In this document: in pieces, positions 4,043 to 64,000 of the stretch
How positions within the stretch are numbered: position 1 is the stretch's first letter
How the letters are laid out: every line of letters starts with the position of its first letter
Assembly: GCA_001767955.1 (NCBI GenBank)
Contig: MEMO01000016.1
Coordinates: 39,404 to 103,403, forward strand
DNA length: 64,000 bases
Source: Alphaproteobacteria bacterium RIFCSPLOWO2_01_FULL_40_26
GTDB taxonomy: Bacteria; Pseudomonadota; Alphaproteobacteria; Rickettsiales; UBA1997
Direction of reading: 5' to 3'
Position numbers and translations under genes: made by a program
The notes under the pieces: model-generated
What the model saw: the letters and a program-made list of their open reading frames with translations, nothing else
The model's database searches: none
Told to the model about the DNA's origin: nothing

Positions 4043-4054
4043 CTTGGGCAAGAT

Positions 4055-4909
4055 ATGAAAAAACATTCTGCCTTCTCCCTGATCGAACTTTCCATCGTAA
4101 TTTTAATCATTGGTATTCTGGTTGCAGGTATAATGCAGGGAAGGTTGATGGTTAAAAAATCCCGCCGTTCCGCAGCGCAAGCGATTACAAAAAATTCTGT
4201 AGTTAACGAAATGTCCGGTCTTGCTTTGTGGTATGAAACTTCGCTTGAGAGTAGTTTCAAGGAAAGCGAAATGTCGGATGGAGGCAATGTTAGTGTTTGG
4301 CATGACAACAATCCTCAAGCTATCAATCGTAATAATGCCGATCAGGGAACGGCAGCAAACCAGCCAAAATTTTACGAAAATGTTTTTAACGGTGCGCTTC
4401 CCGCGCTGCGATTTGATGGGGTTGATGATGCGCTAACCACGGCAAATGGTTTTGATTCTGATTCAGAAAATGTGACAATTTTTTTGGTATGGCAATCCTC
4501 GCTTGATTCAACCTGGCAGGTAATAATCTCAAAAGGTTATACCCCGTCGCCATATCGCATTGCCATCACTGGGAATGCGCATTATTTAACCTATGCCGAT
4601 GCCATGAATAACGGCGCTTCCGCCAATTCAGCAATTATCACCGCAGCCAATAGTCTCAACATTATCTCCGCGAGACGAGCCAAAAATGGAACCATGCAAA
4701 TCTGGATTAATGGCTCATCCGGAGGCACTAATACTGACAGCAGCGGTAGCAATCTGATGACCACCACTGAATCACTTTGGATTGGCGGCTATCCATCCAA
4801 AAATTATGCTCAAGGCGATTTTGCCGAAATGATCATCTTCAAACGCGCTTTACTTACGGAAGAAAGACAAGCGGTTGAAAGCTACTTAAGCAAAAAATAC
4901 AACATATAA
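4055..4909 (+). CDS. prepilin-type N-terminal methylation domain fused to a LamG-like domain (paralog P1)
   Basis: MKKHSAFSLIELSIVILIIGILVAGI is a class III (prepilin) signal with Glu at +5. LamG-like motifs LPALRFDGVDDAL and GDFAEMIIFKRALLTEERQAVESYLSKKYNI. No Cys. Confidence 0.8.
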   Translation: MKKHSAFSLIELSIVILIIGILVAGIMQGRLMVKKSRRSAAQAITKNSVVNEMSGLALWYETSLESSFKESEMSDGGNVSVWHDNNPQAINRNNADQGTAANQPKFYENVFNGALPALRFDGVDDALTTANGFDSDSENVTIFLVWQSSLDSTWQVIISKGYTPSPYRIAITGNAHYLTYADAMNNGASANSAIITAANSLNIISARRAKNGTMQIWINGSSGGTNTDSSGSNLMTTTESLWIGGYPSKNYAQGDFAEMIIFKRALLTEERQAVESYLSKKYNI

Positions 4910-4934
4910 AATCTCTTAATTTCTTTAAAATTTT

Positions 4935-5795
4935 ATGAAAAAACATTCCGCCTTCTCCCTAATAGAACTCTCAATCGTCATCTTAATCATCGGTATCCTA
5001 GTCGCCGGTATAACCCAATCTTCCCGCCTGGTTAAAGCAATGAAGCTAAAAACCGCTCAAAACCTAACCAAAAGCTCTGCCGTTAACAGCATTAAAAATC
5101 TGACCATATGGTATGAAACAACCGTCGATGAAAGTTTCGCTGATAGTGAAGAAGAAAATAACACAGACATCAGCACCTGGAACGACATAAACCCACAATC
5201 ATCATCCAAAAGCAATGCCACCCAATCAAGCACCAAACCGCAATATATCGAAGGTGCGATGAATGGTCTTCCGGTTGTGAGGTTTAATGGAACTGATGAT
5301 TTCTTAAATTTCGACGGAACTCTACTCGTCAACACCAACTATACGATTTTTGTGGTGGAGCAGAGGAGGACTGGCACCGGTATTAACAAACATTTTCTTG
5401 GCGGATCCGGAGTGGCAACCAATACTAACCTGCATCTAGGATATCGTAACGATACGACAGTTACACAAGATCATTACAGCAATGCTATAAACTACACAAT
5501 CCCCGCCTACTCCTCCCCAATACCAAGAATCCACACTTTCTGGTTCAGCAACGCATCCGGAAATGGCAAAAAATACTGGCTTAATGGTGGAACAACCGCC
5601 GACGCATTCGACACTTCCCAAACAGCTTATGTGGCATCTTATGCTGGATCGGCAATTGGAAGATATGCTAGTACCAGCGACTACTTCAACGGCGACGTCG
5701 CCGAAATCATCATCTTCAACCGCGCTCTCAACACCGAAGAAAGACAAGCAGTTGAAAGCTATTTGAGCCAGAAATTTAATGTTAAAATTAGCTGA
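4935..5795 (+). CDS. prepilin-type N-terminal methylation domain fused to a LamG-like domain (paralog P2)
   Basis: N-terminus identical to P1 for the first 26 residues (MKKHSAFSLIELSIVILIIGILVAGI). VVRFNGTDDFL and GDVAEIIIFNRALNTEERQAVESYLSQKFNVKIS. No Cys. Confidence 0.8.
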   Translation: MKKHSAFSLIELSIVILIIGILVAGITQSSRLVKAMKLKTAQNLTKSSAVNSIKNLTIWYETTVDESFADSEEENNTDISTWNDINPQSSSKSNATQSSTKPQYIEGAMNGLPVVRFNGTDDFLNFDGTLLVNTNYTIFVVEQRRTGTGINKHFLGGSGVATNTNLHLGYRNDTTVTQDHYSNAINYTIPAYSSPIPRIHTFWFSNASGNGKKYWLNGGTTADAFDTSQTAYVASYAGSAIGRYASTSDYFNGDVAEIIIFNRALNTEERQAVESYLSQKFNVKIS

Positions 5796-8132: not shown

Positions 8133-9473
8133 CTACCAACGTATCTCGAATTTTTTGCGTAGGAAAATTGCTGCAGAATTTAGAATAATTAAAAATCCAA
8201 GTAGAACCAAAATTGCTGCTGCGGTTTTTTCGGCGAAACCTGATTCGGGTGAATCTGACCAAAGATAGATTTGCACCGGTAAGACTGATGTGGGATCGGT
8301 AAAATTTTGTGGGATATCGGCGATGAAAGCGACCATGCCAATCATCAAAAGTGGAGCAGTTTCGCCCAAAGCGCGCGAAATCGCCAAAATTGTTCCGGTC
8401 ATAATTCCCGGTACTGCAAGCGGTAAAAGATGATGCAAAGTGATCTGCATTTTTGAAGCGCCAAGAGCTGCAGCTCCATCACGAATTGAGTTTGGAATCG
8501 AACGAATAGTATTGCGTGTAGCGATAATAATAACCGGCAAAACCAGCATGAACAAAGTCATCCCGCCGACTAAAGATGAGGAACGCGGCAAATTCATAAA
8601 TTGCAGATAAACTGTTAATCCAAGCAGGCCGTAGATGATTGATGGAATTGCCGCGAGGTTATTGATGCTGATTTCAATTATGTCGGTAAAACGATTTTTT
8701 GGCGCGAATTCTTCAAGATAAAAGGCGCACATTATGCCAATTGGAAAAGCAAAAATCAGAAAAATTACCATCACCAAAAATGATCCGATCAAGCCAGCGC
8801 CAATGCCGGCAATTTCCGGTTCACGCGAATCGGCAAAAGTAAAAAATTTCCAGTTAAAAACTTTTCTTACCTGATTTTTTGTTTTCAGATCAGAAAGCCA
8901 GCGAATCTGATTGTCATTTAGTGAAGAGATATTTTGGTGTTTAAAAAACATATCGGCTTTTGATGCGGCACTTATCCAGAAAATTTTTAAATCGGGATTT
9001 TTCTTGATTTGTTCTTTTATCTCAAGGTTTGCGGCCTTGCTTACCAATTGATAAAGTGAGTTAATTTCAGCAAGTTTTGTGGCTTCGGGAAATCTTTGTC
9101 TCATTGCGTCTTTTATGGCTTGGCGATAATCATCTTCTTTCACGCTGATTTCCAAGGCGATTTCACTTCGGTAAAAATTGCTTTTGGCAAAAATCATAGC
9201 AAACAAAATCAGTAAAAATGCTAAAGCAAAGCCAACCGAAATCATGCCAAACAGCATAAATCGTGATTCGGCGGCATGACGCTTTTTTAGATTTCCAATT
9301 GTTCTAGAGCCTATCTTCAAATTCATTTGTCTTTGATTTTTTGTAAATTTTTGCTCATTTTTTTGAAGAATTTTTTGCAGTATGTCTAATACAGCTGCAA
9401 AATTCTTCAAAAAAGTCGCTAAAAATTTACAAAAAATCAAAGACAAATGAATTTGAAGACAGGCTCTAGCCAT
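8133..9473 (-). CDS. pstA: phosphate ABC transporter permease PstA (start uncertain: 9473 or 9326)
   Basis: C-terminal permease core (ISRALGETAPLLMIG) follows pstC. The first 49 codons are read through palindromic element G1. ATG 9473 overlaps the pstC stop by 8 nt. An alternative ATG at 9326 lies inside the element. Confidence 0.85.
   Translation of the reverse strand: MARACLQIHLSLIFCKFLATFLKNFAAVLDILQKILQKNEQKFTKNQRQMNLKIGSRTIGNLKKRHAAESRFMLFGMISVGFALAFLLILFAMIFAKSNFYRSEIALEISVKEDDYRQAIKDAMRQRFPEATKLAEINSLYQLVSKAANLEIKEQIKKNPDLKIFWISAASKADMFFKHQNISSLNDNQIRWLSDLKTKNQVRKVFNWKFFTFADSREPEIAGIGAGLIGSFLVMVIFLIFAFPIGIMCAFYLEEFAPKNRFTDIIEISINNLAAIPSIIYGLLGLTVYLQFMNLPRSSSLVGGMTLFMLVLPVIIIATRNTIRSIPNSIRDGAAALGASKMQITLHHLLPLAVPGIMTGTILAISRALGETAPLLMIGMVAFIADIPQNFTDPTSVLPVQIYLWSDSPESGFAEKTAAAILVLLGFLIILNSAAIFLRKKFEIRW
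9304..9469. mobile_element. MITE-like palindrome family G, copy G1
   Basis: Near-perfect 166-bp palindrome ctagagcctatcttcaaattcatttgtctttgattttttgtaaattttt...aaaaatttacaaaaaatcaaagacaaatgaatttgaagacaggctctag, flanked by TA. Confidence 0.85.
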
Positions 9474-14958: not shown

Positions 14959-15855
14959 ATGTCAGTTCTAATCAATAAAAACACCAAAGTTATTTGCCAG
15001 GGAATCACTGGTTCACAAGGCACTTTTCACACTGAACAAGCGCTTGCTTATGGTACTAAAATGGTTGGCGGTGTCACGCCTGGCAAGGGTGGAAGTCAAC
15101 ATCTTCATCTTCCGGTTTTTGACAGTGTTTTTGAAGCCAAACAAAAAACCGCTTGCAATGCTTCAGTGATTTACGTGCCGCCAGCTTTTGCTGCCGACGC
15201 CATTCTCGAAGCAATTGATGCCGAGATTGAACTGATTGTCTGCATCACTGAAGGCATCCCAGTGCTTGACATGGTAAAAGTGAAAAAATCTTTGTGCGGC
15301 TCAAAATCGCGTTTGATCGGCCCCAACTGCCCAGGCATAATCACTCCGGGTGAATGCAAAATCGGCATCATGCCCGGCCATATTCACAAGCGCGGCAAAA
15401 TCGGCATCGTTTCACGTTCCGGCACTTTAACTTACGAAGCAGTTCATCAAACAACCAATACTGGCTTGGGACAAAGCACCTGCATCGGCATTGGTGGTGA
15501 TCCGGTCAATGGCACCAGTTTTATTGATTGCCTTGATATGTTTTTGTCCGATCCGGAAACCGAAGCCATGATCATGATTGGCGAAATCGGCGGAACTGAC
15601 GAGGAAGAGGCTGCCGAATTCATAAAAGCCGAAGCTAAAAAGGGCCATAAAAAACCAATCGTCGGTTTCATCGCCGGCAGAACAGCTCCTCCGGGACGCA
15701 GAATGGGACATGCCGGTGCCATAATTTCCGGCGGCAAAGGCGGTGCGGAAGGAAAAATTGACGCAATGAAATCAGCCGGAATCACCGTCGCCGACAGCCC
15801 GGCAGCGCTTGGTGAAACCATGCTTAAATTACTAAAAAACCCCAATAACGCTTAA
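14959..15855 (+). CDS. sucD: succinyl-CoA ligase alpha subunit; last 4-5 codons and the stop come from repeat C1
   Basis: SRSGTLTYE and [12 protein letters not shown] motifs. The tail ...[11 protein letters not shown] is encoded by the element terminus ccccaataacgcttaa. Confidence 0.95.
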
Positions 15856-16073
15856 GGAATTATGGCTTAAGTCTACAAACTCTAAGTAAAACCAATAAAC
15901 TCCACCACACTGTCACCCCGCACTTGTTGCGGGGTCCATTTGGTCGCAACCAATAAAATCAAGTCTTTGACGAGATGGACCCCGCAACAAGTGCGGGGTG
16001 ACAGTGTGGTGAGATTTGTGATTTAGCTTAGAGTCTGTAAATTTGAATCTGGGTTTCTTAAACGTTATTGGGG
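15840..16073. repeat. composite palindrome C1 (family C shell with a family B core)
   Basis: Terminal inverted repeats ccccaataacgcttaag / cttaaacgttattgggg (15840-15856 / 16057-16073). The inner arms are also inverted. Confidence 0.85.
15902..16011. repeat. palindromic repeat family B, copy B1 (core of C1)
   Basis: ccaccacactgtcaccccgcacttgttgcggggtcca ... tggaccccgcaacaagtgcggggtgacagtgtggtg. Each arm is itself a hairpin (ccccgca cttgt tgcgggg). Confidence 0.9.
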
Positions 16074-16110
16074 TTAAAAAACTAATTTTAACACTAACCA
16101 CAGGAGACAT

Positions 16111-17183: not shown

Positions 17184-17260
17184 GCACCCGTAGCTCAACT
17201 GGATAGAGTATCTGACTACGGATCAGAAGGTTGCAGGTTCGAATCTTGCCGGGTGCGCCA
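17184..17260 (+). tRNA. tRNA-Arg (anticodon ACG), CCA encoded
   Basis: Hand-folded cloverleaf: acceptor gcacccg/cgggtgc, anticodon stem tctga/tcaga, loop ctACGga, T loop ttcgaat. Confidence 0.9.
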
Positions 17261-17318: not shown

Positions 17319-17325
17319 TATTGTG

Positions 17326-17423
17326 GCCATGTCGCAAATCAACTTCCTGAAAAATCTGAACCCTTGATTTACAAGGGCTCGTCGAGTTTAAAAATGGTAA
17401 GAAATGGGGATTTGCGACAGTCC
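17326..17423. repeat. palindromic repeat family E, copy E1 (intergenic)
   Basis: ccatgtcgcaaatc...cccttgatttacaaggg...gatttgcgacagtc. About 94 percent identical by eye to the reverse complement of copy E2 at 41387-41484. Confidence 0.9.
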
Positions 17424-17623
17424 CATTGTGAAAGACACAATATTTTTGATAACAACTAAAAAAATAGCAAACTCGGAAAGAAGTTTGAAACCTGAATTTT
17501 GTGCAAAAGTTCTCATGAAGAATTATTCGAAAAACATTTTGTTGATTTTTATTTAGGCGTAGAGTTATAGATTATTTGGTTGTTTAGTTTAACATTTTTT
17601 TAAATTTTATTTATAACATTTCT

Positions 17624-18493
17624 ATGAAACGCGCTTTTTCATTAATTGAGTTATCCATTGTAATTTTGATCATCGGCATTTTGGTTGCCGGCATTACTCA
17701 AAGCTCAAGGTTGGTTTCAGCAATGAGACTTAATTCAGCAAGAGCTTTAACTCAGAGCTCTCCAGTGAATTCAATTAAAGATCTAACACTGTGGCTGGAA
17801 ACTACCTCCACTAAAAGCTTTGCCACCGGCACCTCTACTTTTACCAATGTTGAAGAATTAGATAATGATACCTCTATCGGCAGATGGAATGACATCAATC
17901 CTCAAGCTTCTTCCAAAAATAATGCCACTAAATCAACATCTGATCAGGCAAAATATACCACCAATGCCATTAATGGTTTGCCGGCGGTAAGATTTAACGG
18001 AACCAATAATAATTTTGCTTTTGACGGCACTGTGCTTGTTAATACCAATTACACAATTTTTGTGGTTGAGCAAAGACGTTCCAATGGTAGTAATGGGTGG
18101 CTTCTCATTGGTTCCGCTAGTGCATCCAATACTAACTTACATGTTGGTTATCAAGACGACACTACCATGAGATATACTCATTTTAATAATAACCTGACCG
18201 ATACTGTTTCGGCTTATAGCTCGCCTGCTCCAAGGCTTCATATTTTTAGATTTGATCAAGGTAGCGGCAGACAATATTGGAGAAGTGATGACACAACCAA
18301 CCCTGGCGCTTCCGATGCACAAACAGCGCTTTTGGCTTCATATGCCAATTCATCAATCGGAGGATATGGCACTGATTGGTTTAATGGCGATATAGCCGAA
18401 ATCATCGCCTTCAATCGCGCTTTAAAATCTGAAGAAAGACAAGCGGTAGAAAGCTATTTGAGTCAAAAGTTCAATATTAAAATTAAATACTAG
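17624..18493 (+). CDS. prepilin-type N-terminal methylation domain fused to a LamG-like domain (paralog P3)
   Basis: MKRAFSLIELSIVILIIGILVAGITQSSRLV. AVRFNGTNNNF and GDIAEIIAFNRALKSEERQAVESYLSQKFNIKIKY. Closest to P2. No Cys. Confidence 0.8.
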   Translation: MKRAFSLIELSIVILIIGILVAGITQSSRLVSAMRLNSARALTQSSPVNSIKDLTLWLETTSTKSFATGTSTFTNVEELDNDTSIGRWNDINPQASSKNNATKSTSDQAKYTTNAINGLPAVRFNGTNNNFAFDGTVLVNTNYTIFVVEQRRSNGSNGWLLIGSASASNTNLHVGYQDDTTMRYTHFNNNLTDTVSAYSSPAPRLHIFRFDQGSGRQYWRSDDTTNPGASDAQTALLASYANSSIGGYGTDWFNGDIAEIIAFNRALKSEERQAVESYLSQKFNIKIKY

Positions 18494-19122: not shown

Positions 19123-20534
19123 CTGCCGTATAGGTCGCTAAACCTGACAATATCATCTTCTCCCAAATATTCCCCTGTTTGAACTTCAATTAGCTCTAAC
19201 GGAATTTTGCCCCTGTTTTCCAGACGATGTTTCTTGCCAACGGGGACGTATGTTGATTCGTCTTCGGTTAAAACAAATTCTTTACTGCCGCAGACAACAT
19301 GCGCCGTACCTTTGACCACCACCCAATGCTCGGCGCGATGGTTATGCATTTGCAGCGATAGCGAAGCCTTCGGCTTGACGGCAATTCTTTTCACCTTGAA
19401 ACGGTCAGAAACATCAATCACTTCGAAGCTTCCCCATGGCCGCAAAACTCTGGTATGGGAATTGCATTCCTGCCTTTTATGCTGCTTCAAAAGCTCAAAC
19501 ATTTTTTTGACATCCTGCGAATTGTTTTTGTTGACCACCAGCAACACATCCTTGAGGGAAATTATGATCAGATTCGCAACTCCGATTGCTGCAACTAAAC
19601 CATGCCGTGAATTGATATAGCAATTTTTGCTTTCAAGAACAAAGGCATCGCCAATCAGGCTATTTTTATTTTTATCTTTTTTAGCCAATTCGGAAACAGT
19701 TTGCCAAGATCCAACATCAGACCAGCCAACATCAAGTGGCATTACCGCAACCTTGTCAGATCTTTCCATAACAGCGTAATCAATGGAAATATCGGGACAT
19801 TTTTCGAAGCTTTCTTCATCAAGGCGAACAAAATCAAGATCATAAATTGCTTTGTTATAGGCGTTGACAGAATGAACAAAAATCTCACCACAATATTTCT
19901 GCAAAGCCTCAAGATATATTGAAGCGCGAAACAGGAAAATACCGCTGTTCCACAGATATTCTTTGCTTTCGATAAATTTTTCTGCCTTTTTTTTGTCCGG
20001 TTTTTCGACAAATTTTTCTGCCGCAAAAAGTTCAGGAAATTCGCTTAAATCACGACCCTTTTTTATATAACCATATCCGGTTTCAACCCGACTTGGCTTA
20101 CTGCCAAAGGTAATTAGAAATTCTTCCGTCGCCGCTTTTGCCGCTTTTTTAACCTGGGAAATAAATTTTTTGTCATCATTGACGACATGATCGGAAGGCA
20201 TAACCAGAATCAGATCATCTTTTGGATCTGCGGTAATTACGTCCAAAGCGGCAATCGCAATTGCCGGCGCAGTGTTTCGTCCGGTTGGCTCAAGGATAAT
20301 TGATTTGGCGTTCATTTTAATCGCCCGCAATTCTTCCGCCGCCAAAAAACGATGTTCATTGTTGCAAATAACTATCGGATCAACAAAGCCACAATTTTTC
20401 ACACGTAATGCGGTTTGCTGAAAAAGCGAATATTCGCCAAAAAAATCAATAAATTGCTTGGGATTTAAACTACGGGAAACCGGCCATAGCCTTGTTCCCG
20501 AACCTCCAGAGAGAATTACCGGTGTGATTTTCAT
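19119..20534 (-). CDS. manC: mannose-1-phosphate guanylyltransferase / mannose-6-phosphate isomerase (bifunctional type)
   Basis: First ATG gives MKITPVILSGGSGTRLWP. C-terminal cupin region VKRIAVKPKASLSLQMHNHRAEHWVVVKGTA. Confidence 0.9.
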   Translation of the reverse strand: MKITPVILSGGSGTRLWPVSRSLNPKQFIDFFGEYSLFQQTALRVKNCGFVDPIVICNNEHRFLAAEELRAIKMNAKSIILEPTGRNTAPAIAIAALDVITADPKDDLILVMPSDHVVNDDKKFISQVKKAAKAATEEFLITFGSKPSRVETGYGYIKKGRDLSEFPELFAAEKFVEKPDKKKAEKFIESKEYLWNSGIFLFRASIYLEALQKYCGEIFVHSVNAYNKAIYDLDFVRLDEESFEKCPDISIDYAVMERSDKVAVMPLDVGWSDVGSWQTVSELAKKDKNKNSLIGDAFVLESKNCYINSRHGLVAAIGVANLIIISLKDVLLVVNKNNSQDVKKMFELLKQHKRQECNSHTRVLRPWGSFEVIDVSDRFKVKRIAVKPKASLSLQMHNHRAEHWVVVKGTAHVVCGSKEFVLTEDESTYVPVGKKHRLENRGKIPLELIEVQTGEYLGEDDIVRFSDLYGR

Positions 20535-21162
20535 AAAAATAATCAATTGCGCCGAAACCCTTTATTTTGAGCTTCGTCAATATCTTCAGGTTTTGTGAAT
20601 TAATTCCGCCAAGCGCATAAATTGATAATGAATTTTTGTTTTGCACGGCAATTTTGGCAAAATTTCTCAAACCGAAAAGAGATTGTCGCAAATCCTCATT
20701 TATACCCATTCCATCTGAAGAAGCCGAACTATGACGAAGAAATTTTGTTTCGGGATGGCTTGTAGTTGCAAAGACCGGCGATAAAAAAACCATGTCCGGC
20801 CTGAATTTTCTAGCGCGCAAAAAAGCTTTTGCGCTGTGACAGGAAAAGCTGAAGAGAAAGTTTTTCGGAAAAGATTTTTTTTTGAAAAATTGCAAAGGCA
20901 ATCTATCGCGATCAGAAAAATGAACACCATCGGCTTTGATTTTTTTTGCCAGACCAAAATCTTTTCCAACCAAAATTTTCAGTGATCTTGCGCGCGCTAA
21001 TTTGGCAATTTTTCTGGCAAAAATTTCACGCTCTTCTTTTTTCAAATCATATTCACGAATAATAATTGCGGAATTTTTAGGCAAAGTTTTTATCACTTTG
21101 GCAAAATCCGTAATTTTTTTACGATCGGTAAAAAAAATGCTTTCGAGAAATCTTTTACTCAT
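20470..21162 (-). CDS. thiamine-phosphate synthase family (ThiE/TenI-like) protein
   Basis: FFTDRKK...IIIREYDL...ADGVHFSDRD...ALGGIN pattern. The 3' end overlaps manC by about 65 nt. Contains a half copy of repeat family H (20711-20747). Confidence 0.65.
   Translation of the reverse strand: MSKRFLESIFFTDRKKITDFAKVIKTLPKNSAIIIREYDLKKEEREIFARKIAKLARARSLKILVGKDFGLAKKIKADGVHFSDRDRLPLQFFKKKSFPKNFLFSFSCHSAKAFLRARKFRPDMVFLSPVFATTSHPETKFLRHSSASSDGMGINEDLRQSLFGLRNFAKIAVQNKNSLSIYALGGINSQNLKILTKLKIKGFGAIDYFYENHTGNSLWRFGNKAMAGFP
20711..20747. repeat. family H half-copy (H2) inside the thiE-like gene
   Basis: ccatctgaagaagccgaactatgacgaagaaattttg compared with the H1 arm ccagctgaagaagccgatttatgacgaagcatttttg (about 32 of 37 identical). 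Confidence 0.55.
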
Positions 21163-21796
21163 AAACGAAAAAATAAAAAAGGCCTGCAAACTTTACAGGC
21201 GCAATGTTGCGGAAGTCAATTTAATTGCCGTTTCCAAAATAGTTGCGGCAGAAAAAATTGAAGAAGCGATAAAATGCGGGGTAAAAATTTTCGGCGAAAA
21301 TTACATCAAAGAGGCCAAAGAAAAATGGCAAGAGATTCGTGCTAAAAATTCTGGAATTAAACTGCATTTTATCGGCAATCTTCAAAGCAATAAAGCTGCA
21401 AAAGCTGTTGAGTTGTTTGATTGTATCGAAACTTTAGACAATGAAAAACTTGCCTTGGCGCTACAAAAAGAGATGCAAAAACAGCAGAAAAATCCGGAAA
21501 TCTTCATTCAAATAAATATCGGCGAAGAGCCACAAAAAGGCGGAATTATGCCGCAAGATCTGAAGAATTTCACAAATTTTTGCCGCAAAAATCATCTTAA
21601 TATCACCGGCCTAATGTGCATTCCGCCCTTGAATGAAGCGGCTTCGCCATATTTTGCACTCCTTGCCAAACTGGCGAAGGAAAATAATTTGAAAAATTTA
21701 TCAATGGGAATGAGCAGTGATTTTGAGGAGGCAATCGCATTAGGCGCAACGCATATCCGATTGGGAACGGCGATTTTTGGAGAAAGAAAAATTTAA
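21137..21796 (+). CDS. yggS: YggS-family pyridoxal-phosphate homeostasis protein
   Basis: ATG 21137 gives MLSRNLLLINEKIKKACK...VNLIAVSK...FGENY...HFIGNLQSNK...SMGMSSDF. Confidence 0.85.
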   Translation: MLSRNLLLINEKIKKACKLYRRNVAEVNLIAVSKIVAAEKIEEAIKCGVKIFGENYIKEAKEKWQEIRAKNSGIKLHFIGNLQSNKAAKAVELFDCIETLDNEKLALALQKEMQKQQKNPEIFIQINIGEEPQKGGIMPQDLKNFTNFCRKNHLNITGLMCIPPLNEAASPYFALLAKLAKENNLKNLSMGMSSDFEEAIALGATHIRLGTAIFGERKI

Positions 21797-33316: not shown

Positions 33317-34849
33317 CTACTGCAAAAACACTTTCAAAAACTCTTCAATTGCCTTTTTTAGCTTGGCCTCATTGGCTTCAGTAATTTTTTGCTCCTCTTT
33401 AATCGAAGCTAAAATTTCTGAATGGGAAGCGTGAAGTTTGCGCAAAAATTCTTTTTCGAATTTAGTCACTTCTTTTGCCGGAACTTTGTCGAGATAACCT
33501 TTCACACCGACATAAATTGAAACAACCTGTTCTTCAAAACCCATTGGTGAATATTGATTTTGCTTGAGGAGTTCGGTTAATTTGCGCCCCTTATCGAGCA
33601 ATTTTTGTGTTGCCGCGTCGAGATCAGAACCAAATTGTGCGAAAGCTTCAAGTTCACGAAACTGCGCCAAATCTAGCTTGATTGTGCCTGCAACCTGTTT
33701 CATCGCTTTTGTTTGCGCTGCCGAACCTACACGGGAAACCGACAGACCAACATTAACCGCCGGCTTAATGCCTTTGTAGAAAAGCTCAGTTTCAAGGAAA
33801 ATCTGCCCGTCAGTAATTGAGATTACGTTGGTTGGAATGTAGGCCGAAACATCTCCGGCTTGAGTTTCAATAATCGGCAAAGCGGTGAGCGAACCGCCGC
33901 CGCAAGCATCGGACATTTTCGCCGCGCGTTCAAGAAGGCGTGAATGGATGTAGAACACATCGCCGGGATAAGCCTCGCGTCCAGGCGGCCTGCGAAGCAA
34001 TAATGACATCTCGCGATAAGCTACGGCATGCTTGCTCAAATCATCATAAGCAACCAAAGCATGCATGCCATTATCGCGGAAAAATTCGCCAATTGTGCAA
34101 CCGGTGTAAGGCGCAAAAAATTGCAATGCGGCCGCTTCAGAAGCGGTTGCAGAAACTACCACCGAATATTTCATCGCGCCGGCATCTTCCAAAGTTTTTA
34201 CAATTTGTGCTACGGTTGAACGTTTTTGTCCAATAGCGACATAGATGCAGTAAAGTTTTTTCTTCTCGTCATTTTCATCATGGGCTTTGGCTTGATTGAT
34301 GAAGGTGTCAATAACAATAGCGGTTTTGCCGGTTTGACGATCGCCAATAATCAATTCGCGTTGACCACGACCAATCGGAATCAAACTGTCAATTGCTTTG
34401 ATGCCGGTTTGCATCGGTTCGGAAACTGATTGACGCGCGACAATTCCTGGCGCCTTCACCTCAACGCGACGATATTCAACATTGCGCAAAGAGCCCTTGC
34501 CATCAATTGGATTGCCAAGCGCGTCAACAACACGGCCGAGCAGACCTTTGCCAACTGGAACTTCAACGATTTTTCCAGTTCTTTTTACATTCGAACCTTC
34601 CCTGATTTTTTCGGAATTGCCGAAAATTACGATACCGACATTGTCGGCTTCAAGATTGAGGGCCATGCCTTTTATGCCACCATCAAACTCAACAAGCTCA
34701 CCGGCTTGAACCTTGTCCAAACCATAAACTTTGGCGATACCGTCCCCGACTTTAATGACTTCACCAATCTCTTTTAGCTCAGCTACACTGTGAAAATTTT
34801 CGACAGTTTTTTGCAGGATGTTTGAGAATTCTTCGATTTTAAATTCCAT
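33317..34849 (-). CDS. atpA: F0F1 ATP synthase alpha subunit
   Basis: [10 protein letters not shown] Walker A, full length 510 aa. Confidence 0.97.
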
Positions 34850-35562: not shown

Positions 35563-36480
35563 CTATTTCCCGCCCCCTAAAAACGCGTAAGAAAGAATTT
35601 TATAACAAAGCTTCGCCGCTAGAAAATCGCAGGAATGAAGTTGTTTTATTGGCGCAAGCTCAACCACATCAGCGCCAACAAATTTGGAAATTTTGCCAGC
35701 TTCGCGGATGATATCGAGCGCGTCTTCCCACATCACGCCTCCTGGTTCCGGCGTGCCGGTTGCCTGCATTAAACTTGAATCAAATCCATCCAAATCAAAG
35801 GTAACAAAAACCGGACGATTTTTTAGCGGCGCAACAATTTTTTTTGCGTCCCATTTTCTTTTGTCTTTACCAAAGTGAATGGCGATGCGGTGGCGATTGG
35901 CTTCAAGATACGGAATTTCACTCGCGGAAATATTTCTGATGCCACATGAAATCAGTGTTGAAATCGGATAATCCATAACACGACGAAGCGCTGAAGCATG
36001 CGAATAATGCTCGCCATCATAACCATCGCGCAAATCGGCATGGGCATCAAAATGCAAAATTGCCAGATCGGGATATTTTTTGACGAAAGGCCGAATTGAG
36101 CCGGCGGTAATTGAATGCTCACCGCCAAGAATCAGCGGAAACTTTCCCGCTGCCAAAATTTTTTCTGTGATTTTTTCGAGCTGCTTCAGGGATTTTACAA
36201 CGGACGCGTGATCAATTTTTTGCTCTTTCATCGTCACCACGCCATATTTGCGAAAAGGTTCGCACCAAAATTCTTCATCAAAAAGCTCAACTTGCTTTGA
36301 GGCTTTGATAATGGCTGCAGGCCCTTTAGACGTACCTCCGCCATAGCTCACCGATTTTTCCAAACCAAATGGCACGACAACAACTTTTGCGTCATCAAGC
36401 GATTTCAGATATTTTTCTTCAATGCCAAGAAAGCCGGATTTTTGCGGTAGAAGATTTGAGAGAACAAAATTTTTGGTCAT
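35563..36480 (-). CDS. speB: agmatinase (ureohydrolase family)
   Basis: GGEHSIT, HFDAHADLRD, TFDLDGFD and EPGG manganese-site motifs. Confidence 0.85.
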   Translation of the reverse strand: MTKNFVLSNLLPQKSGFLGIEEKYLKSLDDAKVVVVPFGLEKSVSYGGGTSKGPAAIIKASKQVELFDEEFWCEPFRKYGVVTMKEQKIDHASVVKSLKQLEKITEKILAAGKFPLILGGEHSITAGSIRPFVKKYPDLAILHFDAHADLRDGYDGEHYSHASALRRVMDYPISTLISCGIRNISASEIPYLEANRHRIAIHFGKDKRKWDAKKIVAPLKNRPVFVTFDLDGFDSSLMQATGTPEPGGVMWEDALDIIREAGKISKFVGADVVELAPIKQLHSCDFLAAKLCYKILSYAFLGGGK

Positions 36481-37670
36481 AAAAAATTCAAAACATTAAC
36501 ATGTCCCATCTTGCGCCCGGCAACAATTTTCTCTTTGCCGTAAAGATGAATTTTTGCACGCGGATTTTTGTAAAATTTGTCCAGATTTTTTACTTCATCG
36601 CCGATTAAATTTTTCATAAAACCGCAAGAATGAAATTTTGTTGAACCAAGCGGAAGAGCAGTAATAGCGCGGATCAATTGCTCAAATTGTGAAGTAACCG
36701 CCCCATCCATCGAAAAATGTCCGGAGTTGTGCGGTCTTGGCGCCAACTCATTTACGAGCAATTCACTGCCAACAACAAAAAATTCAACCGCCAAAATTCC
36801 AACCAAATTAATTTCTTTGGCAATTTTTTTTGCCAGGCTTTGCGCCTTTATTCTCAAGCCTTTTGGGATTTGTGCCGGATAAAAACTTTGATCCAAAATG
36901 CCGTTTTTGTGAATGTTGGTTAACGGCTCATAAGCAGCAATTTCACCATTTTTTGAACGCGCAACTATCACCGAAATTTCCGAATCAAATGGACAAAATT
37001 TTTCCAGAATTAATTTTGGACCCCGCAACAAGTGCGGGGTGACAGGCTTCGGAGTGATGCTAGCGCTTGTCACCCCGCACTTGTTGCTTGTCACCCCGCA
37101 CTTGTTGCTTGTCACCCCGCACTTGTTGCTTGTCACCCCGCACTTGTTGCGGGGTCCATCTATCAAACTACTCCAGACTCTATCAGCATCCACAGCGTTT
37201 TTCAAAACAAACTGCCCCTTGCCATCATAACCCATCATGGCGGTTTTTAAAATGGCTTTGCCAAATTTTTTTAGATTTTTTTGCAGAACTTCACGACTTG
37301 GAATTTCAGCATATTCCGTGGCTTTTATGCCAATCGAATTAAGAAAATTTTTTTCCAAAATACGATTTTGTGTGATTTTTAAAATTTGCGGCTTCGGACA
37401 GACTTCAACTTGTGAAGCAAGATAATCAGCGGTTTCAAAAGGGATATTTTCAAATTCAAAAGTGGCGATATCGACCATCTTGCTAAATTTTTTCAGCGCC
37501 ATTTTGTCGGAATAATCAGCATTGATTATTTGATTGGTTACAAAACTCGCCGGAGAATTTTTTTGATCGCTAAACACAACGCTGCGAAAGCCCATCATAT
37601 GCGCATAAAAACAGGTCATGCGTCCCAATTGCCCGCCGCCAATGATACCAATGGTTGTGATTTTTTTCAT
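36477..37670 (-). CDS. purK: N5-carboxyaminoimidazole ribonucleotide synthase carrying an in-frame 47-codon repeat insertion
   Basis: ATG 37670 gives MKKITTIGIIGGGQLGRM. ATP-grasp core GYDGKGQ and C-terminal HLYGK...GRKMGHV. The insert GPRNKCGVTS(NKCGVTS)x3...VTPHLLRGP is encoded by repeat B2. Confidence 0.9.
   Translation of the reverse strand: MKKITTIGIIGGGQLGRMTCFYAHMMGFRSVVFSDQKNSPASFVTNQIINADYSDKMALKKFSKMVDIATFEFENIPFETADYLASQVEVCPKPQILKITQNRILEKNFLNSIGIKATEYAEIPSREVLQKNLKKFGKAILKTAMMGYDGKGQFVLKNAVDADRVWSSLIDGPRNKCGVTSNKCGVTSNKCGVTSNKCGVTSASITPKPVTPHLLRGPKLILEKFCPFDSEISVIVARSKNGEIAAYEPLTNIHKNGILDQSFYPAQIPKGLRIKAQSLAKKIAKEINLVGILAVEFFVVGSELLVNELAPRPHNSGHFSMDGAVTSQFEQLIRAITALPLGSTKFHSCGFMKNLIGDEVKNLDKFYKNPRAKIHLYGKEKIVAGRKMGHVNVLNFL
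37018..37158. repeat. palindromic repeat family B, copy B2, with a 4x 21-nt internal tandem array, inside purK
   Basis: ggaccccgcaacaagtgcggggtgac...(cttgtcaccccgcacttgttg)x4...cggggtcc, about 141 bp (47 codons). Confidence 0.92.
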
Positions 37671-37727
37671 AGCTTCAAAGAGAAAGCGCGGCAAGCTAGG
37701 AAGTGAGACAACATTTTCAACAAATTT

Positions 37728-38429
37728 ATGCCGCAAAAATTCCAACAATTAAAAAAGGCGAAACGCTTGAAAAAATCTTCGCAGAAATGGCTGTTGCGAC
37801 AAATTAATGATCCTTTTATTGAGCGCGCCAAAGCTGAAGGATGGCGCTCTCGTGCTGCTTTCAAGATTATTGAAATTGATCAGAAATTTAAAATTTTTAA
37901 AAAAGGAAAAATCGTGGTTGATCTTGGCGCTGCGCCGGGAGGATGGTCGCAATATGCGGTGCAAAAAGTGGGTGAGGGCAATGTGATTGCGATTGACCTT
38001 TTGCCAATTGATCCGATTCCGGGAGTGAAATTTTTTGTTCAGAATTTTTTGTCAGAAGATGCGGCAAAAAAAATAATTTCCGGACTGGAAGGAAAATGCG
38101 ATATTCTGCTTTCCGACATGGCCGCAAACACCATGGGCGATAGACAAACCGATCATTTACGCATCATTGCACTGCTCGAAGAATCGCTAAATCTGGCGGA
38201 AAAAATTTTACGCCAAGGCGGATGTTTTGTGGGAAAAATTTTTCAAGGCGGAAGTTCCAACGAAATTCTAAAAAAACTCAGAAAAAACTTTTCGACCGTA
38301 AAATATTTCAAACCCGAATCTTCACGCAAAGATTCGGCAGAAACTTATTTGGTAGCATCGGGATTCACTCCGTATGACTCTGAAGAGGTGGAAGAAGGGA
38401 GGGGGGAGTTGTTTCGACAATTGCGCTAA
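37728..38429 (+). CDS. rlmE: 23S rRNA (uridine2552-2'-O)-methyltransferase RlmE/FtsJ
   Basis: SSQKWLLRQINDPFIERAKAEGWRSRAAFK and SAM motif VVDLGAAPGGWSQ. Confidence 0.92.
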   Translation: MPQKFQQLKKAKRLKKSSQKWLLRQINDPFIERAKAEGWRSRAAFKIIEIDQKFKIFKKGKIVVDLGAAPGGWSQYAVQKVGEGNVIAIDLLPIDPIPGVKFFVQNFLSEDAAKKIISGLEGKCDILLSDMAANTMGDRQTDHLRIIALLEESLNLAEKILRQGGCFVGKIFQGGSSNEILKKLRKNFSTVKYFKPESSRKDSAETYLVASGFTPYDSEEVEEGRGELFRQLR

Positions 38430-40102: not shown

Positions 40103-41122
40103 TTATTTTCCCGCAATCCCAAGTTTTTCAAAAAGTCTGCGATCGCGCTCCATTTCCGGGTTTGAGGTGGTAAGTAATTTTTCGCCATAAAAAATCGAAT
40201 TAGCTCCGGCAAGAAAACACAAAGCTTGGGTTTGCTCATTCATATTTTCACGGCCGGCTGACAAACGCACCACAGATTTTGGCATCATGATGCGCGCAAC
40301 GGCAATGGTTCGGACAAATTCGAATTGATCGAGATCTTCAACTTTTTCAAGCGGCGTGCCCTTGACTTTCACCAACATGTTGATTGGAACTGATTCGGGA
40401 TGCTTCGGCAAATTAGCGAGCACGATCAGCATTTTTGCCCGATCTTCACGCATTTCTCCCATGCCGACAATTCCGCCCGAACAAACATTCAGGCCGGCTT
40501 CGCGCACGTTTTTGAGGGTGTTGAGACGATCCTCAAAACTGCGCGTGGAAATAATTTCCGAATAAAATTCTGGCGAAGAGTCGATATTGTGGTTGTAGTA
40601 ATCAAGCCCGGCATCCTTGAGTTTCTTGCTTTGCGAGTCGGTTAGCATTCCAAGCGTCATACAGGTTTCAAGGCCGGTTTTTTTTACCGCATCGACAATT
40701 TCACAAATCTTTTTTACATCGCGATCATGAAGATTTCTCCATGCCGCTCCCATGCAAAACCTTGAAGCACCAGCTTCTTTCGCTGCTTTGGCGGCATCAA
40801 GAATTTTTGAAATTTCCATCAGCGCAGATTTTTCAAGACCAGTGTTATAATGCGCCGATTGCGGACAATATTTGCAATTTTCCGGACAGGAACCGGTTTT
40901 GATGCTTAAAAGCGTGCTGATTTGCACCGCATTCGGATTGTGATTTTGGCGATGAATTTCCGCCGCTTTGAAAACAAGATCGGAAAATGGCAATACAAAA
41001 AGTTGTTCGACTTCCGCAACCTTCCAATCATGACGAGTATTAAAATCGTAAGATAAAACGGGTAATTCCGTTGATTCCGTTTGGCAGAGTTCTTTCATTA
41101 TTCTTTCCAGATAATATGGCAT
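40103..41122 (-). CDS. bioB: biotin synthase (alternative start 41098)
   Basis: Radical-SAM [30 protein letters not shown]. Confidence 0.93.
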
Positions 41123-42183
41123 TTGAAGAGCTCGCCCATTTGATCAGGCGCGATTAAACGATCAATAGCGGAATTTTCGTTTGGCAATTTTTTGCGGCGC
41201 TCTTCGATGCCAAGCGAAATTAAAAATTCCCTTTGCGTTAATAATTGCGAATTCAGATTAAAATTTTTGGCGATTTTATCGAGCGCGGAAAAATCAACAT
41301 GGGCGGTAATGTCGCAATCTTTTTCAAACAGGCTAACTTTGCGGTGATTTTTTACAGCTTGCAAAGTGTTGGCAAATTCATTTTGAGACTGTCGCAAATC
41401 CCCATTTCTTACCATTTTTAAACTCGACGAGTCCTTGTAAATCAAGGGATCAGATTTTTCAGAAAGTTGATTTGCGACATGGTCATTTTGGACATAGCCA
41501 TAATCAAAATTGATGGCGATTCCACCGTGAATATTCAAGGCTTCGCAGAGTTGTGTCATAAATTTTCGCGCAGCGAAACTATATTCAAAAACCGCACCGA
41601 TTCTAGCGAGGGAGGTTATTTCTTTTTCCACAAACTGATGAAGTTTCAAATCAAAATTCCTGATCACAAACCTTTCTGAATCAATCAAACGCTCGCACCA
41701 GCCAATGTCGGTTTTGATGAATTGGTCGATGGGAAAACAATCAAAAAGTTCGTTGGAAAGGAAAAAAATTTGCCCATTTTTTTGTTGCAGAAACTCATCA
41801 AAACTTTCATGCCATTCAACTTCAAAATCCTTCAATTTTTCCTGCTGAATTTTTCTTAAAACCGGATTGATCTCAATGATGTGAAGTTCTGCAAACTCAA
41901 GAAAATCAATGGCTTGTGAGATTTTTTTATCGGCAAATTTTTTGATTGTGATCAGAATATCAAAAAACAAAGTTCCCTTTCCCGCGCCCATTTCCACCAG
42001 AGCAACTTTTGACTTTTTTGCAGAAAAAATCTGCAAAAAACAGGCGGCAATTAATTCACCAAACACCTGAGAAATTTCCGGAGAAGTTATGAAATCGGCG
42101 AGAGGATTTTTGGTGTGGTAATAGCCTTGTTCTTTATCAAACAAGGCTTCTTGCATGAAATGTGAAATACCTATGGCCGCCAA
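41098..42183 (-). CDS. class I SAM-dependent methyltransferase, NDUFAF7/MidA (DUF185)-like, carrying an in-frame repeat insertion
   Basis: [27 protein letters not shown] and DYGY...TLQAVKNH...DITAHVDFS pattern. The segment [35 protein letters not shown] is encoded by repeat E2. Confidence 0.8.
41387..41484. repeat. palindromic repeat family E, copy E2, inside the methyltransferase gene
   Basis: gactgtcgcaaatcccca...tccttgtaaatcaaggga...gatttgcgacatggtc, reverse-complement orientation relative to E1. Confidence 0.9.
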
Positions 42184-42938
42184 TTGAGGAAATTTTTTAA
42201 CAATTTTAATCCCGTTTCACCGCTTTTTTCGGGGTGGAATTGCACACCAAAAATATTTTCCTTCGCCACAATTGCGGTAAGTTTATCGCCATATTCAACT
42301 TGCGCCAAAACGTTATTTTCATTCTGACAAACAAAGTGATAGGAATTGGCAAAATAAAAATGTTCACCATTTTCTATACCTTGCAGAACCGCATGTTTAT
42401 TGGGTTTAATAATAATATCGTTCCAGCCCATATGCGGGATTTTTAGAATCGACCCCCCATCCCCCTCCAGGGGGAGGTCGCGCATACGCGTCGACTTCTT
42501 CGTTAAGAGAGATTGAGTTTGCGAGAAGAGAGATTGAGTTTGCGGGAGGTCGCGCATACGCGTCGACTTCTTCGCTGAATTAGCATCGAGAATTTGAGGA
42601 ATTTTTTCAACATGCCCGTTGATAAATCCCAATCCCTGATGCTCGCCATTTTCATATCCGATATTGGCCAAAACCTGCATGCCGACACAAATTCCAAGAA
42701 AAGGTTTTTTTTCTTTTAAAACCTGATTGCGCATTTCCGGCAAAAATCCTTCCATGTTTTTAAGACTATCCATGCAATCACCAAACGCACCAACGCCGGG
42801 CAAAATCAGATAATTGGCTGATTTGAGATCGGAAATTTTATTCGAAACCGTGATTTCTTGGGGATTGGCAATATGCGATAGAGCATTGGCAACCGAACAC
42901 ACATTGCCGGCGCCATAATCGATGATGAGTATCTTCAT
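42171..42938 (-). CDS. hisH: imidazole glycerol phosphate synthase glutamine amidotransferase subunit HisH carrying an in-frame repeat insertion
   Basis: [26 protein letters not shown] (catalytic Cys), PHMGWN, GVQFHPEKS. An insert of about 45 aa, ...KKSTRMRDLPQTQSLFSQTQSLLTKKSTRMRDLPLEGDGGS, is encoded by repeat F1. Confidence 0.9.
   Translation of the reverse strand: MKILIIDYGAGNVCSVANALSHIANPQEITVSNKISDLKSANYLILPGVGAFGDCMDSLKNMEGFLPEMRNQVLKEKKPFLGICVGMQVLANIGYENGEHQGLGFINGHVEKIPQILDANSAKKSTRMRDLPQTQSLFSQTQSLLTKKSTRMRDLPLEGDGGSILKIPHMGWNDIIIKPNKHAVLQGIENGEHFYFANSYHFVCQNENNVLAQVEYGDKLTAIVAKENIFGVQFHPEKSGETGLKLLKNFLNWRP
42450..42584. repeat. repeat family F, copy F1 (partly duplicated), inside hisH
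   Basis: gaccccccatccccctccaggg-ggaggtcgcgcatacgcgtcgacttcttcg-(agagagattgagtttgcg)x2-ggaggtcgcgcatacgcgtcgacttcttcg. Boundaries approximate. Confidence 0.88.
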
Positions 42939-44741: not shown

Positions 44742-44819
44742 TTTTTAATGAATTTTCGCACAACATAAATTCCGATGCAGTAGTTTCAAGATTGCTTTCA
44801 AAGATTTTATTTTTATACT

Positions 44820-44995
44820 CAATCCAGCTGAAGAAGCCGATTTATGACGAAGCATTTTTGAGGAAAAATTGCGACCCCGTCGACGCGCAGCGCGACAAAA
44901 CAGAATGCGGGCTGTATCAAGTGATACAGCCAAATTCTCCGAGCAAATTTTTACCAAAAAGGCGAAGTCAGAAATCGGCTTCTTCAGCTGGATTG
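44820..44995. repeat. palindromic repeat family H, copy H1 (grpE-clpP spacer)
   Basis: Terminal inverted repeat caatccagctgaagaagccgattt / aaatcggcttcttcagctggattg. Internal hairpin gctgtatcaagtgatacagc. Confidence 0.88.
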
Positions 44996-45031
44996 GGTAT
45001 AGAAATTCGCAAAATTAAATTTCACAAATTC

Positions 45032-46945: not shown

Positions 46946-47109
46946 TAGAGCCTGTCTTAAAACCCAACGTGTCTCGATTTTCCATAAATTTTGAGCGACT
47001 TTTTGGCAAAATTTTGCCGCTGTATTCAACATACTGCAAAAAATTTTGCCAAAAAACGAGCCAAAATTTATGGAAAATCGAGGCGCGGTGGGTTTTAAGA
47101 CAGGCTCTA
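46946..47109. mobile_element. MITE-like palindrome family G, copy G2
   Basis: tagagcctgtcttaaaacccaac..tctcgattttccataaattttg...caaaatttatggaaaatcgag..gtgggttttaagacaggctcta, 164 bp, TA-flanked. Confidence 0.85.
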
Positions 47110-47152
47110 GAGCCTGTGTCTGGAATATTTCGTGCATCGTGCTTCGGTAATA
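47110..47152. repeat. family A-like half element (A3) abutting G2
   Basis: gagcctgtgtctggaatatttcgtgcatcgtgcttcggtaat. It resembles the left arm of A2 (cttgtgtct...tcgtgcttcgtgc). No matching right arm. Confidence 0.55.
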
Positions 47153-49870: not shown

Positions 49871-50107
49871 CCTCGATAACGCTTAAGAAAATTTGTAATC
49901 ACTTTACTCTCCATGGGTCATTTACCACTCACAAAATATTACCCCTCACAAAATATTACCCCTCACCCCAACCCTCTCCCACAAGGGGAGAGGGAGTAGC
50001 GCCGAATTCGGACTAACTCCCTCTCCCCTTGTGGGAGAGGGTTGGGGTGAGGGGTAATGTTCTTCAAAGAGTAAGGTTGAGAGCATTTTTCCTAAGCGTT
50101 ATTGGGG
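49871..50107. repeat. composite palindrome C2 (family C shell with family D core 49956-50057)
   Basis: Termini cctcgataacgcttaag / cctaagcgttattgggg. Core ttacccctcaccccaaccctctcccacaaggggagagggag...ctccctctccccttgtgggagagggttggggtgaggggtaa. Short tandem ttacccctcacaaaata units on the left arm. Confidence 0.9.
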
Positions 50108-56260: not shown

Positions 56261-56425
56261 TAAGAACCTGTCCTAAATCTTTTTTAACCCCATATTTTGC
56301 CCTGTTTTGGCTTATTTTTTGCCAAAATTTTTCAAAATATGTCCATATATTTATCAAAATTTTGACAAAAAAACGCTCAAAACATGACAAAATCTGTGAT
56401 TAAAAAAGATCTAGGACAGGTTCTA
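56261..56425. mobile_element. MITE-like palindrome family G, copy G3
   Basis: taagaacctgtcctaaatctttttt...aaaaaagatctaggacaggttcta, 165 bp, TA-flanked. It contains the annotated ATG of the AsmA-like gene. Confidence 0.8.
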
Positions 56426-63846: not shown

Positions 63847-63862
63847 ACAGTTTCTAACATAA

Positions 63863-64000
63863 TCCCAATAACGCTTAAGAAAATTTGTAATCACTTTACT
63901 CTTTCTAGGTCATTTACCCCTCACAAAATATTACCCCTCACAAAAAAATATTACCCCTCACCCCAACCCTCTCCCACAAGGGGAGAGGGAGTTATACCAA
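63863..64000. repeat. composite palindrome C3 (family C terminus plus family D core), truncated by the window end
   Basis: tcccaataacgcttaagaaaatttgtaatcactttactc...ttacccctcaccccaaccctctcccacaaggggagagggag is nearly identical to the left half of C2. Confidence 0.88.

Follow-up and report, generated by a model that had tools for sequence, protein, structure and literature searches.

The Rickettsia palindromic elements (RPEs), of which RPE-1, -2 and -3 were reportedly described by Ogata et al. in 2000 and 2002, and the Wolbachia palindromic elements (WPEs), said to go back to Ogata, Suhre and Claverie in 2005, are the described systems closest to the repeat analysed here. RPEs measure 105-146 bp, bear 12-bp terminal repeats and lie in-frame in 19 protein genes among 44 insertions in R. 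conorii; a guanylate kinase that carries an RPE has been found to be active (PMC2229807, PMC10969869). Gene-borne RPEs occupy positions that are conserved across spotted-fever-group Rickettsia, and Wolbachia possesses protein-coding palindromic repeats of its own, one WPE being located in the biotin ligase gene (PMC3767692). The target-site duplication of RPEs is given as '?' in a review table (PMC2229807). The Correia/NEMIS element of Neisseria (107 bp), ERIC and YPAL combine terminal inverted repeats, a target-site duplication, a length of 100-170 bp and the lack of a transposase gene, with some copies fused in-frame to host open reading frames (ORFs) (PMC2229807). Here we describe family E, a 99-nt element present twice in a 64,000-nt stretch of contig MEMO01000016.1 from an uncultured groundwater alphaproteobacterium. 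This stretch is referred to as the window, and coordinates throughout are positions in it. One copy lies in-frame within a gene for a MidA/NDUFAF7-like methyltransferase dependent on S-adenosylmethionine (SAM), the other in intergenic DNA. Family E is very probably a young, non-autonomous transposon of the miniature inverted-repeat transposable element (MITE) type, whose genic copies are read through as a passenger loop.

Family E resembles RPEs in being a small repeat (99 nt against 105-146 bp) with short terminal inverted repeats (a perfect 11 bp against 12 bp), in occupying both intergenic DNA and in-frame positions in unrelated housekeeping genes (about 21 of 47 sites, against 19 of 44 insertions in R. 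conorii), and in encoding a conserved passenger peptide. Its host is, moreover, an alphaproteobacterium whose nearest named relatives are metagenome-assembled genomes (MAGs) labelled Rickettsiales; by AtpA, these relatives are labelled Rickettsiales or Rickettsiaceae and reach 83-89% identity. E differs from RPEs in that no sequence relationship was detected by profile searches of its peptide against NCBIfam and Pfam, the only comparison made, and in that its groundwater host, with a GC content of 40.7%, stands outside the genus Rickettsia. Its duplication is an unambiguous 6 bp, in contrast to the '?' entered for RPEs (PMC2229807), and its copies are 92-99% identical and apparently recently active, whereas the positions of gene-borne RPEs are shared across a whole group of Rickettsia (PMC3767692). 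The likeness to WPEs, drawn by description only, consists of protein-coding repeats in another Rickettsiales lineage and of BirA being among the E hosts as well (contig L089). Like Correia/NEMIS, ERIC and YPAL, E is small, has terminal inverted repeats and a duplication, lacks a transposase gene and includes in-frame copies. However, the duplication of Correia, ERIC and RUP carries a TA motif where that of E is the 6-bp WTWATG, and in-frame genic copies are exceptional in Correia, ERIC and YPAL but make up nearly half of the sites in E. These comparisons support the description of E as an RPE-like protein-coding MITE of known behaviour, with no sequence membership in the RPE families as far as tested.

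Two copies of family E and the methyltransferase insert

A preliminary description of the window, made by eye from its letters, had proposed that a palindrome of 97-99 nt lies in-frame within the methyltransferase gene and recurs, about 94% identical and in opposite orientation, beside a tRNA-Arg gene. The features concerned are as follows, with the boundaries of both copies taken from the flank statistics of 47 sites.

41385..41483, minus strand: family E, genic copy; 99 nt, made up of A (consensus G), a 96-nt core and TC; in-frame read-through
41484..41489, minus strand: target-site duplication of the genic copy, upstream in gene orientation; AAAATG on the minus strand, CATTTT on the plus strand; encodes part of the first QN of the protein's QN...QN
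41379..41384, minus strand: target-site duplication of the genic copy, downstream; AAAATG on the minus strand
17326..17424, plus strand: family E, intergenic copy; 99 nt; 66 nt downstream of tRNA-Arg(ACG)
17320..17325, plus strand: target-site duplication of the intergenic copy, left; ATTGTG
17425..17430, plus strand: target-site duplication of the intergenic copy, right; ATTGTG
17184-17260: tRNA-Arg(ACG), adjoining the intergenic E copy
41098..42183, minus strand: host gene, MidA/NDUFAF7-like SAM-dependent methyltransferase (PF02636); ORF listed from TTG, while database calls of the identical protein start at the ATG at 42156 and give 352 aa

Properly aligned, the 96-nt cores at 41387-41482 (minus strand) and 17327-17422 (plus strand) are identical at 93 of 96 positions (96.9%), slightly above the earlier estimate, so that the relationship between the two copies and their opposite orientation stand. 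A repeat search of the window returned the pair, flanks included, as 109 nt at 93%, and a 29-nt E probe hit these two sites only, where 100 shuffles predict 0.00 hits. Beside tRNA-Arg, E is present as an ordinary insertion into intergenic DNA. The complete element is 99 nt long, and each copy has in addition a flanking 6-bp direct repeat, which refines the proposed range of lengths. The consensus reads G-CCATGTCGCAAATCAACTTTCTGAAAAATCTGAACCCTTGATTTACAAGGGCTCGTCGAGTTTAAAAATGGTAAGAAATGGGGATTTGCGACAGTC-CC. Its terminal inverted repeat is perfect over 11 nt (TGTCGCAAATC / GATTTGCGACA), continues in a weaker, imperfect extension, and is almost invariant over 49 copies. The interior contains a single 6-bp hairpin, CCCTTG/CAAGGG, and ungapped identity between E and its own reverse complement amounts to 22%; the term palindrome therefore overstates the symmetry of the element. 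The coding capacity of E is limited to a peptide of about 32 residues, and no transposase gene is contained in it.

The host ORF matches PF02636 (Methyltransf_28) with E = 1.1e-41 in two stretches, and the genic copy adds exactly 35 residues to the protein, between the conserved blocks DYGY and TLQAVKNH. As judged from the sequence, the element landed at CAA-AAT-G and duplicated AAAATG, which accounts for the QN...QN of the protein. Among the 31 closest orthologues (60-66% BLASTP identity, typically 320-340 aa), none has any residue at this place, where they read DYGY(V)-K-(T/N)-EFANTLQA. In the alignment with PDB 1zkd, residues 234 and 269 of the query both correspond to residue 249, leaving about 34-35 residues without counterpart. 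The segment is thus absent from the related DUF185/PF02636 proteins compared, rather than conserved in orthologues that have no such repeat. An AlphaFold2 model shows a confident MidA fold, with TM scores of 0.70 to 1zkd and 0.69 to Dictyostelium MidA (5zu0), in which residues 231-275, comprising the insert, form a low-confidence, unstructured excursion (predicted local distance difference test, pLDDT, below 50). Structure prediction, which had been proposed as a means of placing the insert, supports an insertion, but because of the low pLDDT the position of the insert relative to the SAM site is not readable from the model. Alignment, census and structure all favour an in-frame insertion at this point. 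The protein retains 85 of the 88 residues invariant among the orthologues, whose own leave-one-out range is 93-100%, and the insert would most likely be expressed with it, as a passenger loop that affects function little.

Since the window derives from a metagenome, a repeat might have been wrongly joined into the gene during assembly, and left/right chimeras across E copies (contigs L030, L036 and L076) show that repeat-driven misjoins do occur. The identical insert-bearing protein, however, is found on 20 contigs from independent assemblies and samples of one aquifer system deposited in NCBI, ENA and JGI (GCA_001767865.1 and GCA_001768805.1 among them), which rules out an assembly artefact. 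In addition, the 6-bp duplication at the junctions is perfect, the reading frame is preserved, and the same gene continues on either side. The probability left to a misjoin at this gene is accordingly close to nil.

MidA orthologues of related metagenomic lineages (P0002, P0004, P0008, P0023, P0032, P0042 and P0067) carry lineage-specific inserts of their own at other places, for example SKTGFVTPSSCSDQAQVDVNGWTGLQTPSS and KDLHPLVAQLEAMPQTRNLPLNRG, located at alignment columns 95-117, 195-260, 294-315 and 463-488; in-frame insertions therefore seem common across the clade.

Target-site duplications across the family

A scan of metagenome contigs with an exact 22-base E pattern yielded 59 loci, all from the same aquifer datasets. 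When the core was compared by blastn with the window and all fetched loci, 87 hits were obtained at 52 flank-unique sites, 47 of which are complete; their identity to the window copy is 91.7-99%, without any change in length. Across the 47 sites, the six bases before G-CCATG... recur after ...AGTC-YC with an agreement of 83-91% at each position, compared with 23% at the next base outward and 62% at the next base inward. These match rates define an element of 99 nt and a duplication of 6 bp. Targets follow the consensus WTWATG, with a G as the next base in 60% of sites, and the sequence of the duplication varies from site to site at fixed length, as with AAAATG and ATTGTG at the genic and intergenic copies of the window. 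Duplications of 5 bp or 8 bp were considered and ruled out: the sixth position behaves like the other five, and at the two sites with a base other than G there, that base is found again on the opposite side. The family census proposed in the preliminary description has in this way produced 47 distinct sites with target-site duplications, of which about 21 are in-frame in unrelated conserved genes.

Copies without a duplication turn out to be left/right combinations of two other sites; L030, for instance, unites the left side of L080 with the right side of L049. In the contigs L030, L036, L076 and L049:7767, the left flank comes from one E site and the right flank from a different one, which reflects either recombination between E copies or chimeric metagenome assembly.

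Small size without a transposase gene, terminal inverted repeats, a duplication of fixed length and site-dependent sequence, and many near-identical dispersed copies are properties by which MITEs are recognised, and E displays all four. A small, numerous, hairpin-forming element in a bacterial genome might also be a repeat of the REP/BIME class, which depends on a RAYT (Y1) transposase for its movement. To our knowledge, REPs do not make target-site duplications, whereas that of E is clear and 6 bp long. REPs are 20-40 bp with GTAG or CGTC heads (PMC3733652), in contrast to the 99 nt of E and its terminal inverted repeats without such heads. Assignment of E to the REP/BIME class is thus extremely unlikely.

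Reading frames, host genes and the encoded peptide

Every insertion lengthens the host sequence by 99 + 6 = 105 nt (35 codons) and for this reason never shifts the downstream frame. Only two of the six frames of E are open, one in each orientation, and both begin with VAN and end with DLR because of the terminal repeat. At this GC content, about 1 in 8 frames of this length would be open by chance, as estimated from base composition. The intergenic copy is likewise free of stops in one frame, as had been pointed out earlier. This observation is true, but it is not independent evidence and carries no extra weight, since the copy is 97% identical to the genic one; a stop-free frame is the trivial outcome of that identity, and its interpretation as a sign of selection was rejected.

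Within long open frames (at least 30 codons on each side), 22 unique sites were found, 17 in the forward frame and 5 in the reverse orientation, and about 21 of the 47 sites are in-frame within conserved genes. Pfam domains were identified in 20 of 20 scanned host genes, MidA being scanned separately. These hosts are a CopA-type P-type ATPase, NuoG, RibF, Ddl, a MetX-like alpha/beta hydrolase, FolC, ferrochelatase (HemH), BirA, MurC, TrmD, an AddB-like PD-(D/E)XK nuclease, ComEC, an ABC ATPase, an iron-type alcohol dehydrogenase, a C26 amidotransferase, the C-terminal part of DnaE, a Fic protein, an RlpA-like protein, a formyltransferase and ParB, the last of which is ambiguous, the element probably lying just upstream of the true start codon. 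The Pfam match spans the insert in the HAD domain of CopA, in the molybdopterin domain of NuoG and in ferrochelatase, and against PDB homologues the inserts of TrmD and ferrochelatase appear as pure gaps of about 35-37 residues.

When 105 nt were excised in silico from the remaining sites, a single one was found to interrupt a long gene in a stop-containing frame, namely the gene of an IS1634-like transposase. A second transposase gene, IS5-like by eye, holds an E copy together with a deletion. With sites at gene ends and the chimeric joins included, the census divides roughly into one half in-frame in real genes and one half intergenic or at gene ends, with essentially no housekeeping gene bearing a disruptive insertion. 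Such a pattern is what largely blind insertion, followed by the selective loss of harmful copies, should produce. The copies present today are those compatible with the read-through route, and selection against all others would have left them behind.

The frame distribution bears on a further explanation, in which the insert is removed before it affects the protein, as a small self-splicing RNA or an intein-like segment, so that frame would be irrelevant. E can indeed form a terminal stem and an inner hairpin of about -29 kcal/mol (z about -3); the values obtained for E as RNA are about -29 to -31 kcal/mol, with z = -3.2 and -2.6, only moderately better than shuffles. Rfam matches in the window, however, are limited to three tRNAs, and known group I/II introns and inteins are far larger than 99 nt or 33-35 residues. 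Removal would also predict all six combinations of frame and orientation, whereas the copies in housekeeping genes are all stop-free and the sole stop-introducing one is in a transposase gene. We regard removal of the insert as exceedingly improbable, and the read-through of E as a passenger loop agrees with these frames.

No sign of selection is seen on the E peptide. Intergenic copies differ from the consensus at 2.9 positions each and genic copies at 2.7-2.8, and synonymous to nonsynonymous differences stand at 12:31 in forward genic copies and at 25:49 in intergenic copies read in the same notional frame. These figures bear on whether the peptide is a recruited functional module, an interaction, targeting or regulatory loop kept because it is useful. 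Such a role could explain why E is in-frame in about 21 conserved genes, why 17 of the 22 copies within ORFs share one frame, and why the peptide, from a reading of its sequence, is hydrophilic and a plausible surface loop. The bias toward the forward frame can nevertheless arise from target preference together with a stop-free frame, roughly half of the E sites are intergenic, copies 92-99% identical are too young for their retention to mean much, and genic copies lack a synonymous excess over intergenic ones.

Searches with the peptide are in keeping with this assessment. In three frames, E peptides found no match in Pfam or NCBIfam even at E <= 10; NCBIfam presumably includes the RPE domain models derived from TIGRFAM, whose presence in the release used could not be confirmed. 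Among 1.84 billion cluster representatives, searched without a word index, only two other proteins carry the peptide, one Fic protein and one short ORF, and a protein homologue search with both open-frame peptides recovered 3 proteins only. With at least 21 genic copies in the DNA census of public metagenomes, the protein searches fall far short of the true number and are not evidence of rarity. Short inserted peptides are, as an observation in its own right, largely invisible to word-indexed and cluster-representative protein searches. On balance, recruitment of the peptide as a functional module is very unlikely.

Mobility, neighbouring repeats and implications

In the mechanism favoured for E as a MITE-type transposon, a transposase supplied in trans would recognise the terminal repeats and make a 6-bp staggered cut at the target. 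Insertion into an open frame at a tolerant site would then add a 35-residue loop to the protein, and harmful insertions would be lost through selection.

Several points weigh against this interpretation. The MidA insert separates two highly conserved blocks with only about 5 residues between them in the orthologues, which is not an obviously permissive place, and an insert-free allele of the site was not found in a close strain. Expression and activity of the insert-bearing protein are argued by analogy with the RPE-bearing guanylate kinase of Rickettsia. The comparison of synonymous and nonsynonymous differences is crude, since many of the differences are shared subfamily variants rather than independent events. 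The sites were drawn from several MAGs and metagenomes of one aquifer and not from one closed genome, and the census is a lower bound biased to young copies because an exact match was required. No autonomous element with E terminal repeats was found in about 0.74 Mb (the window and the aquifer loci), and the two transposase genes beside E copies are insertion targets and not partners.

The same 0.74 Mb contained no long inverted pair of E terminal repeats, and the terminal repeat occurred outside E copies in 2 unique places only. Two candidate partners were rejected. The IS1634-like element has ends (CTCTTCCCAACTTGTCCTACC) unrelated to E, and its transposase gene is disrupted by E; its candidacy had been suggested by the 5-6-bp duplications that the IS1634 family makes. 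The IS5-like fragment (P0126) has no Pfam match and is itself an E target. The IS1634-like element, found at L056:5768-7604 and L041:3749-5595, is flanked by a 19-bp direct repeat, GCTATCCTTTCTGGCGGCA, and its transposase gene is split by E; a paralogue in L039, about 75% identical, lacks the E copy.

A scan of genome contigs with gapped terminal repeats gave 18 hits, most of them chance or unrelated matches (e.g. in Saccharibacteria and Nocardioides). MITE-like elements with the same ends and different interiors were found on L001, L009, L016, L011 and L012, all from MAGs labelled Rickettsiales, some with 5-bp duplications. A common terminal repeat around unrelated interiors suggests a shared transposase family. 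It is possible, though rather doubtful, that E represents an active, coding-compatible MITE lineage whose 105-nt unit and open frames are element-level adaptations to a gene-dense genome, and that it belongs to a superfamily sharing G(A/G)(G/C)(A/C)(C/A)TGTCGCAAATC across environmental Rickettsiales-like bacteria and mobilised by one transposase.

One of the 2 places with the terminal repeat outside E copies is a fragment in the window.

20679..20750, minus strand: E-type terminus fragment (GAGATTGTCGCAAATCCTCATTT; 84% identity with the E end across 32 nt), joined to one arm of the repeat family at 44809-45006

This fragment is in-frame in a ThiE/TenI-like ORF (20470-21189, minus strand), a gene identified by motif recognition only, where it reads SSASSDGMGINEDLRQS and adds about 18-20 residues between SPVFATTSHPE and the GLRNF block.

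Other repeats are frequent in the window. At least five further palindromic repeat families have arms of 64-136 nt that are 72-96% complementary, and some abut or overlap ORF ends. The repeat search placed palindromic repeats at the following positions.

9303-9469: palindromic repeat
46946-47111: palindromic repeat
56263-56424: palindromic repeat
49939-50074: palindromic repeat
63855-63994: palindromic repeat
44809-45006: palindromic repeat
15838-16075: palindromic repeat

Extra segments were also noted in other genes. HisH (ORF 42171-42938, minus strand; TIGR01855, E = 6e-63) matches its family in two stretches and contains an extra segment, KKSTRMRDLPQTQSLFSQTQSLLTKKSTRMRDLPLEGDGGS, at 42440-42620, within which a 31-nt direct repeat recurs at a spacing of 72 nt (42472-42502 and 42544-42574). 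As hisH on contig L023 encodes 231 aa against 255 aa here, one 72-nt unit appears to be polymorphic in the population. A PurK-like ORF (36477-37748, minus strand) includes a 21-nt unit, GCTTGTCACCCCGCACTTGTT, tandemly repeated 3-4 times at 37017-37169, with a hairpin CCCCGCA...TGCGGGG that is found again at 15903-16011. PurK differs in length among contigs (397, 405, 416 and 423 aa), and its unit, read in reverse as QQVRGDK, is repeated in an ABC ATPase (L079) and at the C-termini of the MidA orthologues P0004 and P0008. Many close homologues of AtpA (33317-34849, minus strand) have 526-531 aa, against 509-510 aa here and in others, which suggests that AtpA of these relatives may carry an insert of 17-21 residues. 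Three paralogous ORFs, each about 285 aa long and opening with a prepilin-type N-terminus (MKKHSAFSLIELSIVILIIGILVAGI), lie at 4054-5795 and 17617-18493; the start of one is some 200 nt downstream from the intergenic copy of E.

For annotation, inserts of 35 residues inflate and split domain matches, and repeats of this kind are accompanied by chimeric joins in metagenome assemblies. The best-known cases of selfish repeats placed in-frame in essential genes come from Rickettsia and Wolbachia, and the way in which RPE-type elements move is a long-standing question. Family E offers young copies in an uncultured groundwater alphaproteobacterium, an unambiguous duplication and a uniform, frame-neutral addition of 105 nt, and these properties recommend it as a cleaner system in which to study the transposition of such elements and the reasons for their tolerance by proteins. 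Should E prove to be a coding-compatible MITE lineage, its clear duplication and young copies would make the movement of RPE-type elements directly testable. In principle E holds no surprise, but as an example from outside the classical hosts it is unusually clean and apparently recent.

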